From IMG/VR virus record IMGVR_UViG_3300034053_000055, positions 1 through 36,016 of that record: a stretch of DNA of 36,016 bases; one strand, given 5' to 3'. This document shows, one piece after another, positions 2,661 to 18,205 of the stretch. Position 1 is the stretch's first letter. The number at the start of each line of letters is the position of its first letter. The position numbers and the translations under genes are program-made. Under the pieces are notes generated by a model. The model was not told the origin of the DNA. It saw only the letters and a list, made by a program, of their open reading frames with translations, and ran no database searches. This DNA comes from a virus. Taxonomy: Duplodnaviria; Caudoviricetes.

Positions 2661-5600
2661 GAACAGCACCAAGATCGTCATCAGCGCGGAAGACCGCGCC
2701 AGCGGCACGCTGAAGGGCATCGGCGCGCACATGGGCGGCCTGAGCGGCGCCGCCGCCGCCGCCAACGCCGCCCTGGCCTCCCTCTCCGCCGGCGCCGCCC
2801 TGGCCGGCCTCGCCGCCACCGCCAAGGCCGCCATCGACGCCGCCGACAACCTCAACGACCTGAGCCAGAAGACCGGTATCGCCATCAAGGACCTCGTCGC
2901 CTACAAGCTGGCGGCCGAGCAGTCGGGGACCTCGCTGGATGTCGTCGCCAAGGGCATGAAGGCGCTGGCGGTCGGCATGATTGAGAACAAGGACGCGCTG
3001 ACCGCTGCCGGAATCACCGCCAAGGACACCAGTGGCGCCATGCGCCAGCTCGCCGAGCTGTTCAGCCAGATGCCGGACGGCGCGGAGAAAGCGGCCATCG
3101 CCACCAAACTGCTCGGCAAGGCCGGCACGGACCTGATCCCGCTGCTAAATCTGGGCACGAAGGGGCTCAATGACTCTGCCGAAGCCTCGGCGCGCTACGG
3201 TGCCGCCATGGCCGCCCTGGCGCCGCGGGCAGATAAGTTCAACGACGACATGAGCGCCCTATCGCTCAATATGCAGGCGATCGGCGCGGAGTTGGCGCAG
3301 GCGGTCGCGCCAGCGTTGAATGTGCTTGCCGAGGAAATGCTGGCGGCCAGCAAGGAAACGACCGGGTTGTCGACCCAAGCCAGCGTCCTGAAAACCGTTT
3401 TCGAGACAGTGGTGGTCCTCGGTGCCAATGTTGCCTACGTTCTAACGGGCATCGGGAAAGAGATTGGTGGCGTGGCCGCGCAGATGGCGGCCCTGGCGCG
3501 ATTCGACTTTAAGGGCTTTGTCGACATTCATCGGTGGATGGAAGAGGACGCCGCGCGCGCGCGGAAGGAAATCGACGCCCTGAGCGAGCGGCTGCTCAAT
3601 CCGCCGGCGATGAAGTCGGAGCAGAAAAGCGCCCCCTCCGACGACCTGCTGCGCCGCTTGGAGGAACTGAAAAAACGCCTGGCCGGCGCCGGAACTGCCA
3701 GCAAAACCGCCCGCGATGCCTACGAGGAACTGCTGACGCGCCTCAACGCCAAGGACGCTGGAATCGACGCGGGGTTCTTCAAGGACCTGCAGACCTTGCA
3801 GGCCGGCTTCGCCAAGCATGGCGACCTGGCCCGGCATCAGGCCGAGGTGCAGAAACTGGTCGAGACGCAGGGCTACTACAAGGACGCGCTGAAGGCGACC
3901 GCCAAGGCCGAGGAGGACTGGCAGAAGAGCGTCGAGAAGGCCCGCCAGGCCGTCGATGACGAGATCCGCAAGCTGGAGGAGCGCGCCAGCGCCGCCGAAG
4001 GGGAACTGGAGACCTACGGCAAGACCAAGAGCGAGATCGAGGCGCTGATCATCGCCCGGCTGGAAGAGCAGAAGGCCATGACCATGGGCCTCGATTCGCA
4101 GGAGGAACTGGTCGCCAATCTCGAAAAGGAGATCGCCGCCCGCAAGCGCGCCCGCGCCGCCTTCGCCGGCGTCGAGGCCAAGGACGCCGCCAAGAAGGCG
4201 GCCGAGGATGCCGCCCGCGCCTGGGAGGACTTCGCCCGCGACATCGAGCAGTCGCTGACGGACGCCCTCATGCGCAGCTTCGAGGCCGGTGACGACTTCG
4301 GCCGCGCCTTCGCCAAGAACCTGGAAAACATCTTCAAGACCATGATCCTCAAGTTCGCCATCCAGGCCACCATTGGTGGCGCCGGGCAGCTGCTCGGCAT
4401 CCAGACCTCGGCCGGCGCGACGAATGCCTTCAGCACGGCCGCCAACCTGTGGTCCACCGGCAGCGGCCTCTACCAGGGCTGGACCGGCCTGACGACCGGC
4501 GGCGGCCAGGGCGCCTGGGGGCAGGCCGGCAACTGGCTGGGCAACCAACTCGGCACCTACCCGACGGCCGGCGGCTCGCTCAATGCGTCGGCGGTCAACT
4601 ATACGAACAGCATGGACCTCGCCAGCGACGGCGCCGGCAGCATGTCCGGCTCGATGGCCGGGCTTGGCTACATGGCCGCCTTCATGGCCGTCGGCATCGC
4701 GCTCGGTGAGTGGTTGGACTCCAAGGCTGGCGGCGTCAAAACAGAGGGCGACGCTTTTATGACTGTTGGTGACGACGGCCCAACCTTTGCCGACCGCTTC
4801 GTCACCGGCTCTGACATGTTTTCCGGCAATACCGGCGTCGCGTTCGTGGATGTCAACGGCAACCCGGCCGGCGAGACGACGAGCTTCTACAGCGAGGCCA
4901 ACGGCTTCACCGACTACCTCTACAACACCGTCACCCGCCGGGTGTCGGATCAACTCACCGACCTGCTGACGCCGTTCAGCGGCGCGGTGCGCGACTTCAT
5001 CGGCGAGCTCGGCGGCGATGCCTCCGGCCTGGCCTTCGCGCTGGGTTATTCGGCCGATGCGCAGGGCAAGGCGGGCGTGACGCTGGGCTCCGGCGTGGCC
5101 GGCGCCGATGGTGTGCAAATCTACGGAGGAAACAAGAGCGTCAGCGGTGACCTTGGCGCCGAACTGAACCTCGAACTGCAGCGCATGCTCCTCGCCTCGA
5201 TCAAGGCGGCCGACGTGTCGAGCCTGTTCAAGGACGCCCTTGCCGGCGTGGACATTGCCGCGCTCGACGGCGAGGGTATCGCCAAGATGTTCAGCAACAT
5301 CGGCCTGCTCAAGCAGGCCTTCGACCAGTTCGAGGACCTGTTCCCGGACCAGGGCGGCCTGACCAGTGGCCTGCTGAAGGCCATGGGCGGCATGGAGGCC
5401 ATGCAGGCATCGCTCGCCACCTACTACGACGTGGCCTACAGCGCCGAGGAAAAGCAGGCGATGCTGCGCCGCGACCTGGAGGACCAGTTCGCCGCGCTCA
5501 ACGTCGCCATGCCAGATTCCGTCGCCAGCCTGCGCGCCCTGGTGGAAGCGCAGGACCTCTCGACCGAATCCGGCCGCGCCCTGTTCGCCGCCCTCATCAA

Positions 5601-9958: not shown

Positions 9959-10033
9959 TGGTGGGCGATGCTGGTGTCGAACCAGCGACCTTCCGCGTGT
10001 GAGGCGGACGCTCTACCGCTGAGCTAATCGCCC
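9959..10033 (-). tRNA. tRNA-Val (anticodon CAC), full length with CCA
   Basis: Minus strand GGGCGATTAGCTCAGCGGTAGAGCGTCCGCCTCACACGCGGAAGGTCGCTGGTTCGACACCAGCATCGCCCACCA forms a complete cloverleaf. Confidence 0.93.
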
Positions 10034-10217: not shown

Positions 10218-10670
10218 ATGCACGAACAGCACGGCCTCACGAAAACGCCACTCTATATGCATTGGAGAGCAATGCGAAATAGATGTTTGGGGACGGATAA
10301 GAATAAGATCAGGCACTACCAGTCAAAGGGCATAAGAATCTGTAAGGAGTGGGATTCTTTCCCGGTATTCATGGCGTGGGCTATAGAACACGGATGGGAA
10401 AAGGGGTTGACTCTCGACAGAATCGATCCCCGTGGAAATTATGAGCCTGCGAATTGCAGATGGGCGACCCCATTGCAGCAAGGGGAGACAAAATCAAATA
10501 AGGCCGTCGTTACTGTCGGAGATGAAACGCTCACGGTAAGCCAGTGGTCGCGCCGCATTGGCATAGGTCTATCGACCCTCTTCCGGCGCTACTACAAAGG
10601 CATAAGAGGTGCGGCCTTTGTCGCTCCTATAGACGCTAAAAAATCAAGGCGCATCACGGCATCAATGTGA
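10218..10670 (+). CDS. HNH-type endonuclease
   Basis: HGLTKTPLY..WRAMRNRC...LTLDRIDPRGNYEPANCRWAT. Lower GC than the backbone. Confidence 0.75.
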   Translation: MHEQHGLTKTPLYMHWRAMRNRCLGTDKNKIRHYQSKGIRICKEWDSFPVFMAWAIEHGWEKGLTLDRIDPRGNYEPANCRWATPLQQGETKSNKAVVTVGDETLTVSQWSRRIGIGLSTLFRRYYKGIRGAAFVAPIDAKKSRRITASM

Positions 10671-11613: not shown

Positions 11614-11777
11614 TGGTGCTCCCGTAGCCAGCGCTTGACCTCGTCGAGATTGTAGCGCTTGCCGCGCCGGCCGATCGGTGTGTAGGGCAGTCCGTCCAGT
11701 TCCAGGCGCCGGACGGTGCTTTCGCTGATGGCCAGGGCGGCGCAGAGCTGCTGCCGGCTGAGGTCTGCGGTCAGCAT
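11499..11777 (-). CDS. xis: excisionase-like HTH protein
   Basis: LSRQQLCAALAISESTVRRL...RYNLDEVKRWL, overlapping the int start. Confidence 0.75.
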   Translation of the reverse strand: MLTADLSRQQLCAALAISESTVRRLELDGLPYTPIGRRGKRYNLDEVKRWLREHQCQSGSTRTDAATSRSWSAGAAYTDACRRAHLRVMPSS

Positions 11778-12379
11778 GTGATGATCCGATCCAGCGGGCT
11801 CTGTACGCCGCGCCCGCCGCGGTTGAGGACGTGGGTGTCTCTCGATATGGCGGCCGAGAAAGCCCCGTGCAAGACAACGGAAGCGCCAATAAACGCGGCG
11901 GCGGCCTCGGCGGGGGTTGAAAACCGGCCAAGGTAGAGTCGCTTTTTTGTGATGGGCAGTGTAATGCGTGCGGCAAATTTCCCATCTGGGGCGGCGTCGA
12001 CGCCAGTTCCGTGCTTGGATGCTCTAACTCGGTTGGCGATGTTTTGCGCCGGGGTGGCAAGGCGCAGATTTTCTATCCTGTTGTCTGCTGTGTTGCCATT
12101 GATGTGGTCAATATCGCCAACTGGGTACGATTCGTGATGCCAAAGCCAAATGAGGCGGTGAACCTTGAATCGATGCCCCAACAGATATACGCCGGAATAT
12201 CTCTGTGACTTCTGTCCGCCAACAGCATCCCCTGGCTTCTTTGTGATGTTTCGCAGTGGAGCTTTCCACACAAAACAGCCGGCAACCGCGTTGTATGAAA
12301 ATCTCCGCCGCATTTCTGCGAGCAGCACATCGTCTGTTGGCCTCGATCTGGTCCGACGCGCGGTTTCTTGATCAGCCAT
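11771..12379 (-). CDS. HNH endonuclease with AP2 domain
   Basis: HRLIW..IDHINGNTADNRIENLR followed by GV...FAARI..LYLGRFSTPAEAAAA. Confidence 0.85.
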   Translation of the reverse strand: MADQETARRTRSRPTDDVLLAEMRRRFSYNAVAGCFVWKAPLRNITKKPGDAVGGQKSQRYSGVYLLGHRFKVHRLIWLWHHESYPVGDIDHINGNTADNRIENLRLATPAQNIANRVRASKHGTGVDAAPDGKFAARITLPITKKRLYLGRFSTPAEAAAAFIGASVVLHGAFSAAISRDTHVLNRGGRGVQSPLDRIITC

Positions 12380-12665
12380 GATTGGCCTCCTTCGGATTAG
12401 GTAAACCAAGCACTTCGCGCAGATCGTCAATCAGCTTGACGAGCGTTTCGCTCTGGCCGTCGCAGGTATTGCTCCAGTCCGAGGCGAGGTAGCTGCCCAC
12501 GCTGGCGAGTTTGGAAGTCAGGGAGTATTCGTTGCCGTCGAGCTTCCGGATGGCGTCGAACATTGATTGCAGGTCGCTGAAACACGACTGCATCAGGTGG
12601 GTGGTGTTGTGGGCTTCGGTGACGGCCTGACGGGCGGCGTCAACCAGTACGGCGTGTGGGCGCAT
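12372..12665 (-). CDS. hypothetical protein downstream of the C4/ash leader
   Basis: AGAGGA RBS before ATG 12665. 97 aa, helical, overlapping the HNH start. Confidence 0.55.
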   Translation of the reverse strand: MRPHAVLVDAARQAVTEAHNTTHLMQSCFSDLQSMFDAIRKLDGNEYSLTSKLASVGSYLASDWSNTCDGQSETLVKLIDDLREVLGLPNPKEANHG

Positions 12666-12714
12666 AGCGGTAGTCCTCTGAAAACGGTTTGCGTTTTCCG
12701 CTCTCCCGACGCCA

Positions 12715-12796
12715 ATCGGGTGGGCGGAACCGTGCAGGTTGGCGTACCGGTCAGAGGGCCGGCGCGGGTTTCCCCGCCCCACACGGCCCGCCCATA
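12715..12796 (-). promoter_or_regulatory. C4 antisense target region (c4-a1b1/ash-like leader)
   Basis: GGGCGGGCCGTGTGGG...GGTACGCCAACCTGCACGGTTCCGCCC hairpin. Its ACGCCAA is complementary to the C4 loop TTGGCGT. Confidence 0.65.
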
Positions 12797-12801
12797 GGAC
12801 T

Positions 12802-12900
12802 TGCCGCGTACTGCGCACAAAAAAGCCTCGACATGAGAATGCGAGGCTGTGCGCCTCTGATACCAGGACGCCAATCCTGACCGCTGGATTTACAGCGGCA
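12802..12900 (-). ncRNA. C4-type antisense RNA (P1 C4 / P4 CI family)
   Basis: Three hairpins: CCGCTG/CAGCGG, CAGGA-TTGGCG-TCCTG, GCGCACAGCCTCG/CGAGGC(T)nGTGCGC. Has its own upstream promoter. Confidence 0.7.
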
Positions 12901-12905
12901 GGCGA

Positions 12906-12934
12906 ACGGTACGCCGCGAAAATCGTCATGTCAA
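12906..12934 (-). promoter_or_regulatory. sigma70 promoter for the C4 RNA
   Basis: TTGACA-17 bp-TACCGT directly upstream of the RNA. Confidence 0.65.
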
Positions 12935-12953
12935 CTTCAGCTATCTGCATGCC

Positions 12954-13044
12954 GCCTAACTCGTCGATGGAAAGCACGCCGCGCGGTAATGTGGTGGTGA
13001 GTGAAAGACATCATGGCGCGGCGGCTTTCATCTCTGCGTTCGGC
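12954..13044 (+). mobile_element. integron attC site A
   Basis: R'' GCCTAAC, 5 bp spacer, L'' GATGGAAA vs L' TTTCATC (one extra base), extrahelical A in GCACGCC, R' GTTCGGC. Confidence 0.8.
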
Positions 13045-13628
13045 GTCTCAAGAACGCCCGTCACTTCGTTGCCCATCGCTGTCCATCCTTCGCGGACTCG
13101 GCGCGCAAACATTTCGTGGTAATCGCCGGGGCTCACGCGCTCCACCATCTCGTAGAACTCTTCCGGCTTTTCGCTGTGCCGGCCGCGGGGCCACTGAAAC
13201 CACGTCCCGCGCGTCTTGCCGAACGCATTGCCGGCCGGGCCACCCTTCCGGCACAGCAGAACTTGCTCGGAGTTGCATTGAAACTGCCCGGTCCCATAGC
13301 CAGGCTTGCACCACGTCAGCGTCTGCTGCGGCTCAAAGCCCCACGCCCGCGCAACGCGCACGGCCCAATCCAAATGCTGGTTCAGCGCCCACAGGTACAG
13401 GTGCGCTTTCGGCTCTGTCTCGGGCCGCATGGCCTCTATCGCATCAACCGTCAGCAGCGGGTAATACCGCTGCGGCCCTGCGCGGTACGGACCTTCGCGC
13501 CGGCCTACGGTGTTTCGGTGCAGGCTCGGCCACCAGGGCGGGTCGGCCACCACTGTTCGCGGGAGCCGCCGAACCCGTTGGTCAACCGGACCTGCCGCAA
13601 TCGGAGTTTTCACAAGTTCAGTCTCCAT
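13011..13628 (-). CDS. MT-A70 family N6-adenine methyltransferase
   Basis: VVADPPW catalytic motif, HLYLW, HSEKPEEFY, EMFARR. A GTG at 13613 with GGAG RBS is an alternative start. Confidence 0.88.
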   Translation of the reverse strand: METELVKTPIAAGPVDQRVRRLPRTVVADPPWWPSLHRNTVGRREGPYRAGPQRYYPLLTVDAIEAMRPETEPKAHLYLWALNQHLDWAVRVARAWGFEPQQTLTWCKPGYGTGQFQCNSEQVLLCRKGGPAGNAFGKTRGTWFQWPRGRHSEKPEEFYEMVERVSPGDYHEMFARRVREGWTAMGNEVTGVLETPNAEMKAAAP

Positions 13629-13663
13629 CTGGTGCGGCAGGCCGGTTACCGCCAGCGTTAGGG
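13568..13663 (+). mobile_element. integron attC site B
   Basis: R'' GCCGAAC, L'' GGTCAACC vs L' GGTTACC (extra C), GGACCTGCCGCA/TGCGGCAGGCC stem with extra A, R' GTTAGGG. Confidence 0.88.
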
Positions 13664-13667
13664 GCCT

Positions 13668-13910
13668 TCATTGCGTAGCCACCGCCGGCAGCAAATCGCC
13701 GTTGTCCTCGAAGTCATCGCGCAGGATTTCCAGCGAGTGGTCAGCGGCGACCTCGATCACTTCGCGAAACGACTTGAACCGCTCGCCAGTCGCCGGATTG
13801 ATCTCGGGGGCGCCCATCGCGTGTTTCGTGGCCGCCTTCGCCCAGCCTGGCAGCATCTCGAAAGAGCGGTCCAGTTGGTCAATCAGTGCTGCGCGTTCTT
13901 GTGCTTCCAT
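13668..13910 (-). CDS. hypothetical protein (cassette cargo)
   Basis: 80 aa, AAGGA RBS, stop just before R' of attC B. Confidence 0.7.
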   Translation of the reverse strand: MEAQERAALIDQLDRSFEMLPGWAKAATKHAMGAPEINPATGERFKSFREVIEVAADHSLEILRDDFEDNGDLLPAVATQ

Positions 13911-13911
13911 G

Positions 13912-14241
13912 TCAGTCCTTTCCGGGGCGCTCGGCCCCTAACACGTCATTCGAGAGGGACGCTTCGCCATGAAGCCGGCTCGCGCCCCTCAATTCGGCGT
14001 TGTGCCCCTCGGGTGCCGTCCTGCCAGCGTCGACTTTTGTCGGGGCAATGTGAAAATCGCAATCTCCAGCATTCGGGCAGTCGTCTGGTTCGCACGGGCC
14101 AAGGTATCCGGGCGCGCAGGCCGGGGATGGTTCGCCGCATGGCATCAAGTCGTCCGTCTTGCATGCGCAGCCCCAGTCCGAATAAAGGCCGTCGAAACCT
14201 TCCGCCGTAAGTGCTTTTACTGTTATGTCTCGCAGGTTCAT
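13912..14241 (-). CDS. Cys-rich hypothetical phage protein (cassette cargo)
   Basis: GGAG RBS. GFDGLY..GCACKTDDLMPCGEP..C.PGY. The C-terminus is translated attC C. Confidence 0.7.
   Translation of the reverse strand: MNLRDITVKALTAEGFDGLYSDWGCACKTDDLMPCGEPSPACAPGYLGPCEPDDCPNAGDCDFHIAPTKVDAGRTAPEGHNAELRGASRLHGEASLSNDVLGAERPGKD
13936..14005 (+). mobile_element. integron attC site C
   Basis: R'' CCCTAAC, ACGTC spacer, ATTCGAGAGGGACGC...GCGCCCCTCAAT, R' GTTGTGC. Confidence 0.85.
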
Positions 14242-14266
14242 TTCTGTCTCCGTTGTCAGCGCCGGG

Positions 14267-14337
14267 GCACAACCCGTCACTCGTGTGGGACCTGCCGCGA
14301 TAAAGCCGCGTCAGGTCCCACAGTTCTAGCGTTGTGC
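14267..14337 (+). mobile_element. integron attC site D
   Basis: R'' GCACAAC, CCGTC spacer, ACTCGTGTGGGACCTG...CAGGTCCCACAGT, R' GTTGTGC. Confidence 0.85.
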
Positions 14338-14609
14338 CCCAAAGCCTTCGCAACCGCCGCCTCAGCCATCGCCACTGCTTTTTCGGTGTGCGCAAAGAGC
14401 AGCTCTTGGAGCGCGGCCAGAAGGTCAGGCGCTGCGGCCATCAAATGTGCGTCGACGGCGGCACATTCATCGTGGTGGCCTAGACTCACAATACGGACGC
14501 GATCGGTTTCCACTGCGTAGCCTCGGGAGTCGAGCGCCACAAACCAGGTTCCTAGCGTTCGCTTGACTTCCAAATCATGCGGCGCTCTTGCGGTTCTGTT
14601 GGGTTCCAT
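14277..14609 (-). CDS. hypothetical phage early protein
   Basis: DAHLMAAAPDLLAALQEL...AEAAVAKALG motif common in phage early genes. The C-terminus reads through attC D. Confidence 0.7.
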   Translation of the reverse strand: MEPNRTARAPHDLEVKRTLGTWFVALDSRGYAVETDRVRIVSLGHHDECAAVDAHLMAAAPDLLAALQELLFAHTEKAVAMAEAAVAKALGHNARTVGPDAALSRQVPHE

Positions 14610-16785: not shown

Positions 16786-16826
16786 AGCCTAGCGGAACGC
16801 TAGAAGCCTGTCAAGCAGGGCGCTAG
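16786..16826 (-). promoter_or_regulatory. PL promoter with operators OL1 and OL2
   Basis: TTGACA-17-TAGGCT. Operator palindromes CTAGCGgaaCGCTAG (16789-16803) and CAAGCAgggCGCTAG (16812-16826). Confidence 0.8.
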
Positions 16827-16836
16827 ACTTTCGTGT

Positions 16837-17889: not shown

Positions 17890-17902
17890 GACGAGCATTT
17901 TG

Positions 17903-17955
17903 CTAGAAAATAATCTAGCGGGCCGCTTGACTAACGGCTAGCGCGCCGCTAGACT
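17903..17955 (+). promoter_or_regulatory. PR promoter with OR operators
   Basis: TTGACT-17-TAGACT (17927-17955). CTAGCGcgcCGCTAG (17938-17952) and CTAGCGggcCGCTTG (17915-17929) match the OL sites. Confidence 0.8.
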
Positions 17956-17962
17956 GCGCCGC

Positions 17963-18205
17963 ATGGACCTCAAACACTATCTTGAACCGCGCGGCCGAGT
18001 TAATGATCTGGCTGCCCTCATAGGCGCACCTAGTGCGCTCGTCAGCCAGTGGAAAACCGGAGTCCGAAAAGTCCCCGCCGAGCGCTGCCCCGCCATCGAG
18101 CGCGCCACGGGCGGCGCGGTGCGCTGCGAGGATCTGCGGCCCGATGTCGATTGGGCCTACCTGCGCGCCACGGATTGCCCGGTGACAGAAAGGGAGGCGG
18201 CTTGA
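17963..18205 (+). CDS. cro: Cro/YdaS-family transcriptional regulator
   Basis: LAALIG...VSQWKTGVRKVPAERCPAIERATGGAVRCEDLRPDVDW. Confidence 0.88.
   Translation: MDLKHYLEPRGRVNDLAALIGAPSALVSQWKTGVRKVPAERCPAIERATGGAVRCEDLRPDVDWAYLRATDCPVTEREAA

Follow-up and report, generated by a model that had tools for sequence, protein, structure and literature searches.

The 36,016 bases analysed here (the window) make up an entire virus record and carry an array of four attC sites whose genes all lie on the attC bottom strand, the strand that folds into the recombining hairpin. We consider it probable, at roughly three chances in four, that this is an orphan array of phage-adapted cassettes, a mirror image of the bacterial arrangement, likely moved by an IntI supplied from elsewhere and likely read from the leftward early promoter of the phage. 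The array belongs to a widespread phage variant of integron cassettes. That phages carry attC arrays is known: such arrays (CALINs, integrons) have already been published from phage genomes, and bottom strands of phage attC sites recombine with attI1 (Qi et al., 2023; PMC9892861). In the literature covered (texts, mostly non-subscription; figures excluded), no description of phage cassettes that are both inverted and frame-locked was found.

Four attC sites delimit three complete cassettes

We used a scanner built on attC geometry that permits unpaired bases on one arm only, and whose threshold was relaxed once, after a first version had overlooked attC C. Four attC-type sites were identified in the window, all on one strand, against a chance expectation of 0.25 sites per shuffled window for both strands together (20 shuffles). 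Applied in its final form to 890 kb of other loci, the scanner returned 591 sites on the same strand as the anchor site, two on the opposite strand and four in shuffles. Sites and cassettes are as follows.

12954..13044, + top strand: attC A, 91 nt, crossover after 13038; last site in the direction of the genes
13568..13663, + top strand: attC B, 96 nt, crossover after 13657
13936..14005, + top strand: attC C, 70 nt, crossover after 13999
14267..14337, + top strand: attC D, 71 nt, crossover after 14331
13039..13657, unstranded: cassette 1, 619 bp, including attC B; R' and R'' exact complements (GTTCGGC/GCCGAAC)
13658..13999, unstranded: cassette 2, 342 bp, including attC C; met as a unit with other neighbours
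14000..14331, unstranded: cassette 3, 332 bp, including attC D; R' and R'' exact complements (GTTGTGC/GCACAAC)

All four sites form the imperfect palindrome R''-L''-loop-L'-R' with an AAC/GTT core, attC C folding weakly as DNA. Canonical attC sites, our yardstick, have an unpaired T and an unpaired G at a set spacing; the spacing of attC B is the textbook one (T, 6 bp, G, 3 bp, 5-nt spacer), and attC A has a C for the G. A figure legend within the available portion of Loot et al. (2017; PMC5371416) agrees with this geometry. At all four sites the unpaired bases lie on the arm adjoining the left R box of the + strand, which makes minus the bottom strand and + the top. The preliminary description had likewise taken + as the top strand, and its assignment holds, since the crossover position and the intI–attI geometry of complete phage integrons (see below) agree with the unpaired bases, both giving + and not the reverse polarity. 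When bottom strands were folded as DNA and compared with shuffles, z-scores were −4.6 (A), −3.6 (B) and −7.0 (D); attC C in its array form folded no better than shuffles as DNA (z −0.3), and gave z −2.3 as RNA. Rfam had no match at the attC sites, its only matches in the window being a tRNA and a C4 RNA, and a repeat finder overlooked the sites because their sequences differ.

Each of the three complete cassettes starts with an R', left by the crossover, that exactly complements the R'' of the same cassette, as expected if each forms a circle. The same own-end complementarity was present in 98 of 147 viral cassettes; when the two boxes compared came from a single array site, the figure was 17 of 147. 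A cassette belonging to attC A is not recognizable, and no end motif for one was found. With four attC sites in 1.4 kb and no IntI nearby, the array is a CALIN.

Every gene of the array lies on the bottom strand

The following genes and predicted ORFs were assigned to the array.

12937..13011, minus strand: predicted 24-aa ORF, ATG overlapping the MTase stop inside attC A
13011..13613, minus strand: MT-A70 family DNA/RNA adenine methyltransferase (MTase; Pfam PF05063, E 2.5e-12), likely start GTG at 13613
13618..13671, minus strand: predicted mini-ORF of 17 aa, ATG overlapping the gene 2 stop, stopping 4 nt before the MTase GTG
13668..13910, minus strand: gene 2, 80 aa, stop within its own cassette, 4 nt before R' of attC B
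13912..14241, minus strand: gene 3, a cysteine-rich body of 80 aa with a 29-aa tail from cassette 2
14277..14609, minus strand: gene 4, phrog_1273, passing attC D in the Asn frame

As first described, all genes between the sites are on the minus strand: the eight plus-strand ORFs over the region had no Pfam match over the cut-off, and the arrangement of a canonical cassette, a top-strand gene ending at its own attC, was found for none of the genes. The placing of starts and stops within the hairpins was borne out as well. The MTase stop (13011-13013) lies inside the terminal part of attC A, which encodes the final nine residues of the protein from the crossover Asn onward, and the terminal part of attC B contains GGAG (13623-13626), ATG (13628) and GTG (13613). 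An MTase start inside attC B is required because no other ATG, GTG or TTG stands between GTG 13613 and the conserved first strand, because homologues have several residues ahead of that strand, and because related long attC sites of other phages have a start at the matching place. The start is likely GTG 13613, with ATG 13628 as the predicted alternative. In a folding model with the left arm of attC B held open, the paired GGAG was not released.

As described earlier, the frame of gene 3 continues through attC C to a stop 1 nt short of the gene 2 ATG, and gene 4 stops inside attC D. The predicted 17-aa mini-ORF passes the crossover in the Asn frame, as do the other three genes, and the predicted 24-aa ORF, possibly the stub of a lost cassette gene, exits attC A in the same frame as the MTase exits attC B. 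Gene 2 has no neighbour-derived tail and belongs to no Pfam or PHROG family; seven relatives were found in viral contigs. There were 27 database matches to gene 3. No close relative of genes 3 or 4 was found in viral contigs, and two distant relatives of gene 3 were found in metagenome contigs. Upstream of gene 4 no attC or R'' was found, and it is therefore not a complete cassette.

The array sits in a leftward run of small genes

The window has the content of a temperate phage: terminase, portal, capsid and tail genes, an integrase, an excisionase and a tRNA. A cro-like gene is present at 17963, and a run of small genes reads leftward from ~16780 to the integrase, with the attC array within it. 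One candidate promoter for this run was identified.

16786..16814, minus strand: candidate leftward promoter, TTGACA, 17 nt, TAGGCT; a weak regex match, below the threshold of the promoter tool

The candidate (16814-16786) sits among repeats common to the cro promoter region. Short palindromic boxes, likely repressor operators, are repeated at 16789-16829 and 17902-17955 and cover both candidate early promoters.

Directly beyond attC A, at the position of attI–intI in complete phage integrons, lies a C4 antisense RNA region (12372-12934, minus strand) with an Rfam RF01695 match at 12716-12799, a downstream ORF and a promoter-like TTGACA-17-TACCGT at 12934. Similar DNA occurs in Pseudomonas and Bordetella phages, and 29 GenBank phage records match the C4 region and a methylase fragment only, none spanning the array. 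In this phage, a C4 antisense RNA/antirepressor-type module and an HNH gene appear to fill the position that attI–intI takes in complete phage integrons. HNH endonuclease genes lie on either side of the integrase–excisionase pair (10218-10670, plus strand; 11771-12379, minus strand), and the tRNA gene (9962-10033, minus strand) is likely part of the attachment site. The one tyrosine recombinase of the window that was compared scored 45.9 bits against TIGR02249 (IntI), for which the cut-off is 265; as it also adjoins the excisionase and the tRNA, the phage's own integrase was rejected as the cassette recombinase. No IntI was found in the window and the phage attI motif was not matched near the array; an intI and attI adjoining the array are absent here and present in other phages.

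Gene polarity differs between phage and bacterial arrays

A tabulation of gene against attC orientation, proposed in the preliminary description, was made using one strand-specific attC pattern, thus sampling one attC family, in 54 of 64 parts of the viral contigs (129 stretches) and 7 of 64 parts of the genomes (130 stretches), with long flanks taken for 80 loci of each. Genes were called with a home-made caller, which reproduces the family-confirmed genes of the window and missed a Lar-like gene. At 112 viral sites the site-owned gene was inverted in 94 cases, canonical in five and uncalled in 13; at 136 sites in prokaryote genomes it was inverted in 14, canonical in 109 and uncalled in 13. 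The contigs in these tallies are not independent, and the significance of 94:5 versus 14:109 (Fisher p 2e-40) is overstated by relatedness. The proposed phage-adapted class is nevertheless upheld, inversion being usual in viral contigs and exceptional in genomes. Complete cassettes gave 131 inverted, 5 canonical and 11 other in viral contigs (n = 147), versus 22, 91 and 10 in genomes (n = 123), and 15 of the 22 inverted genome cassettes came from two loci with phage genes, L178 (adjoining a holin and an endolysin) and L223 (RecT). Independently of the caller, 40 cassettes drawn from 71 were compared with PHROGs by their longest ORF on each strand: 22 of 40 bottom-strand ORFs had a match, and none of 38 top-strand ORFs did.

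In the sampled viral cassettes, cargo with family matches is rich in DNA methyltransferases and other DNA-modifying enzymes, a composition that points to counter-defence. Of two phage arrays of Qi et al. (2023) that we re-examined, that of MW202573 (L343:2275-3450) is inverted with Asn-frame tails, and that of TJE1 (L342:250-1075) is canonical; inversion is thus not universal in phage arrays. One locus of the viral collection (L065:847-2100) resembles a host-type array and contains IntI fragments and four cassettes that are near-identical.

Many viral genes cross the swap point in one frame and end in the neighbouring cassette

Inverted viral genes that end at a site (219 in total) fall into three groups: 52 terminate ahead of the site, 47 use the TAA of R' as their stop and 120 continue past the crossover. 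By comparison, 5 of 196 canonical genome genes pass a crossover. All but two of the 120 read AAC as an Asn codon (118/120; 104/106 without near-copies). An overlapped start in the Asn frame was present at 28 of 40 viral junctions and, on the top strand, at 24 of 68 bacterial ones. For ORFs ending more than 20 nt into the site, 49 of 132 in the Asn frame ended near a downstream start, 25 with exact overlap; in the other frames the corresponding values were 19 and 6 of 90, and 41 and 13 of 149. The coupling of frame to start is therefore partial, with ends near the next start modestly enriched, and over a third of the tails amount to one codon, a long way from the next start. Sites containing a start together with a ribosome-binding site numbered 14 of 216, and 10 of the 26 long ones.

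The effect on proteins can be followed among homologues, in comparisons that rest on proteins predicted from assemblies. Eleven close homologues of gene 3 have a common body up to the crossover Asn and then 10 other tails, and one further homologue ends earlier than this Asn. In the closest MTase cluster (15 of 49 members listed, 14 of them other than the MTase itself) there are nine members with other tails after Asn, one without the Asn and four that are shorter; a second MTase cluster has 12 tails in 14 members. Conversely, a protein search with the 29-aa tail encoded by the attC C minus strand and the cassette 2 leader, of the kind the preliminary description had called for, found that exact tail on three unrelated bodies, and siblings of two of these bear other tails. 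The earlier claim that C-termini depend on the neighbouring cassette thus stands for MTase and gene 3 homologues, in which the body is kept and the tail swapped at Asn, and at the DNA level for the neighbours of cassette 2 (see below); it reaches too far for gene 2, which has its own stop, and for gene 4, which lacks an attC of its own. Most likely, the tails are tolerated by-products and not selected domains.

Several further variations were noted. The near-identical methyltransferases P0028-P0030 and P0149-P0181 differ at their N-termini, which resemble the second arm of different attC sites; from sequence comparison, it would seem that a gene can exchange its own attC as well as its neighbour. 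The tail of the gene 3 homologue P0183 ends in residues resembling the leader of cassette 3 itself, and may come from a circular or tandemly repeated cassette. Unrelated cassettes at L085, L095, L283 and L309 match cassette 3 (14000-14040) in the last ~40 bases before the crossover, which gives them a common short peptide end, and the leader of a cassette at L017 contains the complement of part of this shared end.

One alternative accepts inversion and mobility as real and holds that frame and tails are by-products of cassette construction and stop loss, with no translational role. Under this explanation, which we regard as a serious possibility though short of an even chance, the frame follows from cassette ends that are inverted repeats of each other, with a start codon often a few bases before RYYYAAC. 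In keeping with it, bacterial sites too are preceded by an excess of Asn-frame start codons, on both strands, canonical genes entering their own attC also favour the Asn frame (17/29), many tails are one codon long, and near-identical proteins freely differ in their tails. Moreover, deletion of attC mostly had little effect on the next cassette, according to the available portion of Carvalho et al. (2024; 10.1101/2024.03.26.586746). However, the phage bias (118 of 120) greatly exceeds 17 of 29; nearby stops are no rarer in a second frame (149 versus 88 of ~255 within two codons), which is almost never used; at L023 the junction is 3 nt longer and the frame is kept; and the Asn frame has about twice the proportion of exact stop–start overlaps.

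Complete phage integrons and the unit that moves

Such sites also occur beside an integrase. In 50 viral records with these sites, out of 69 chosen, IntI scored over the cut-off in three, one of which contains a homologue of cassette 2. A search with one phage IntI gave 51 viral loci, 33 of them with enough upstream DNA, and in 26 of these 33 the array is upstream of intI, its bottom strand is on the intI strand and its genes are co-oriented with intI, so that the intI/attC geometry is regular. This geometry establishes polarity independently of the unpaired bases. Most of the 26 loci have a common attI-like motif, often crossed in the Asn frame by the last gene. Among 60 distinct sites at intI loci, 27 are crossed in the Asn frame and three in other frames, 28 have a gene that stops at or before R', one is canonical and one uncalled. 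The conserved attI-like motif lies just upstream of intI (L282:1370-1423, L283:1360-1423, L281:1335-1423 and ~22 more viral loci). As the last cassette gene often enters this motif and stops ~30 nt before intI, intI would share its operon. In an IntI tree, all 25 integrases with the phage attI motif fell within one branch of 31 viral rows, away from six genome rows; branch support was 94/94 (unstarred), for a set gathered using one of its own members.

Exchange of the neighbours of a single cassette could be read from public sequencing runs. Twenty contain part of the region, and eight, from eight studies, were compared in detail. Cassette 2 is near-identical in all eight, ending at 13641-13656 on the left and, in seven, at 14001-14002 on the right, which is the conserved TT after the attC C crossover, with other DNA beyond. 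Cassette 2 thus ends at the predicted G|TT crossover, and because of these ends the moving unit includes the attC before gene 2 and excludes the one after it. In the eight runs the MTase and gene 4 were uncovered except for pieces of under 50 bases. At viral loci L017, L018 and L023 a gene 2 homologue has three other neighbours from AAC onward, and the loose neighbour end in one run codes for the end of P0022, a bearer of the attC C tail. One RNA-library run has cassette 2 as contigs, from which strand and transcription are not readable. After the cassette 2 homologue at L018, at the operon end, there is an A/T-rich box (4244-4290) unlike attC and unlike the common phage attI; it is possibly another attI type.

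These data bear on a second alternative, that host cassettes were captured backwards or that the array is a dead relic, with no separate phage class. The window itself has neither IntI nor attI, some bacterial cassettes are inverted (22/123) and the TJE1 array is canonical, all of which fit. We consider this account improbable, and in its denial of a class already largely refuted: the orientation of a gene relative to its attC is a property of the cassette that capture cannot alter, it splits by source, complete phage integrons of the same layout exist, and cassette 2 recurs near-identically across eight studies with other neighbours. That polarity was misread, the other strand recombining and each gene travelling with the following attC as in bacteria, is highly improbable, for although R-box complementarity alone is compatible with either crossover, homologous genes also differ in the preceding attC (different N-termini) and a pairwise test of flanking-attC linkage across loci was informative for none of eight pairs, the unit conserved in the eight runs includes attC C and excludes attC B, the attC C tail stays joined to the cassette 2 leader on unrelated proteins, and the attI and intI of complete phage integrons lie at the end predicted from the unpaired bases.

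A model for the mirror-image array

We return to the reading of an orphan, phage-adapted array. In this model, the genes lie on the strand that would fold into the recombining hairpin. As the attC precedes its own gene on the coding strand, and as the upstream cassette contributes only six bases to the next site, a gene lacking a stop of its own obtains a short tail and a stop from the next attC; and since the genes are on the strand opposite to that of bacterial integrons, most reading frames cross the swap point. The common Asn frame would keep tails short after any swap and bring the ribosome near the next start, acting as a convention that makes any junction readable, so that the array would be a continuous, shufflable part of the early operon. 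Long attC loops could carry the ribosome-binding site and start of the next gene. Transcription would come from the leftward early promoter, for which the weak candidate match is on hand, and recombination from an IntI acting in trans, supplied by the host or by a co-resident phage with intI downstream of attI in one operon. Behind a host Pc the cassettes would, by their geometry, be silent; the genes of the window point to the attI end and Pc could not drive them. More speculatively, a bottom strand on the lagging template or the non-template strand might gain in recombination; an effect of the bottom strand being on the lagging template is described in the available part of Loot et al. (2017; PMC5371416).

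Like the window, the phage CALINs of Qi et al. (2023; PMC9892861) have several attC sites without IntI and methyltransferase cargo, and the text of that study, figures aside, makes no mention of genes oriented against attC, of a constant reading frame or of tails encoded by a neighbour. Classical integrons (class 1 and sedentary chromosomal), as presented in the available portions of Cury et al. (2016; PMC4889954) and Loot et al. (2017; PMC5371416), share the attC anatomy, the G|TT crossover and the complementary ends, and complete phage versions share with them the regular intI–attI–attC geometry. The phage class differs in that its genes occupy the bottom strand, face attI and share the orientation of intI, and in how often they enter the neighbour's site (120/219 versus 5/196 canonical). 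Inverted-integrase integrons of the Treponema type have intI reversed with respect to attC; intI is absent from the window, and phage intI loci are unlike this type, their intI/attC geometry being regular in 26 of 33. ORF-11 of attI1 and short ORFs inside attC were reportedly described by Hanau-Bercot in 2002 and by Jacquier in 2009. These ORFs are alike in spanning the crossover and taking a stop from the incoming cassette, and passage of short ORFs through the hairpin has been proposed to aid re-initiation (reviewed in PMC8876359, available portion). They are, however, small top-strand leader peptides, whereas in phages full-length bottom-strand genes cross most junctions in one frame. Translation effects of attI and attC are on record (PMC8876359; Carvalho et al., 2024, 10.1101/2024.03.26.586746), and integron reviews and tools are available (PMC4889954, PMC8618304, PMC13323075), each as far as its available portion extends.

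Implications for phage and integron biology

The prevailing view of integron cassettes is of bacterial genes on the top strand, transcribed from Pc. If phages hold a large pool of opposite polarity, two cassette economies share one recombination chemistry, with no expected expression in each other's platform. As both classes end genes at RYYYAAC and favour the same frame, differing only in which arm bears the unpaired bases, there is also a handle on the origin of cassettes. The layout explains a common class of odd, variable C-terminal tails on phage proteins, and serves as a warning that attC-based annotation assigns phage genes to the wrong site.

A broader, tentative proposal, to which we give somewhat less than even odds, is that phages run a mirror-image integron system of their own, with an IntI lineage and attI, intI as the last gene of the early operon, a separate cassette pool and a universal in-frame Asn joint. 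If true, the flip would let genes run in the direction of phage transcription and replication while placing the recombining strand on the displaced or lagging template, and induction would drive shuffling. Furthermore, counter-defence cassettes of phages would go unexpressed in host integrons, as would host defence cassettes in the phage.
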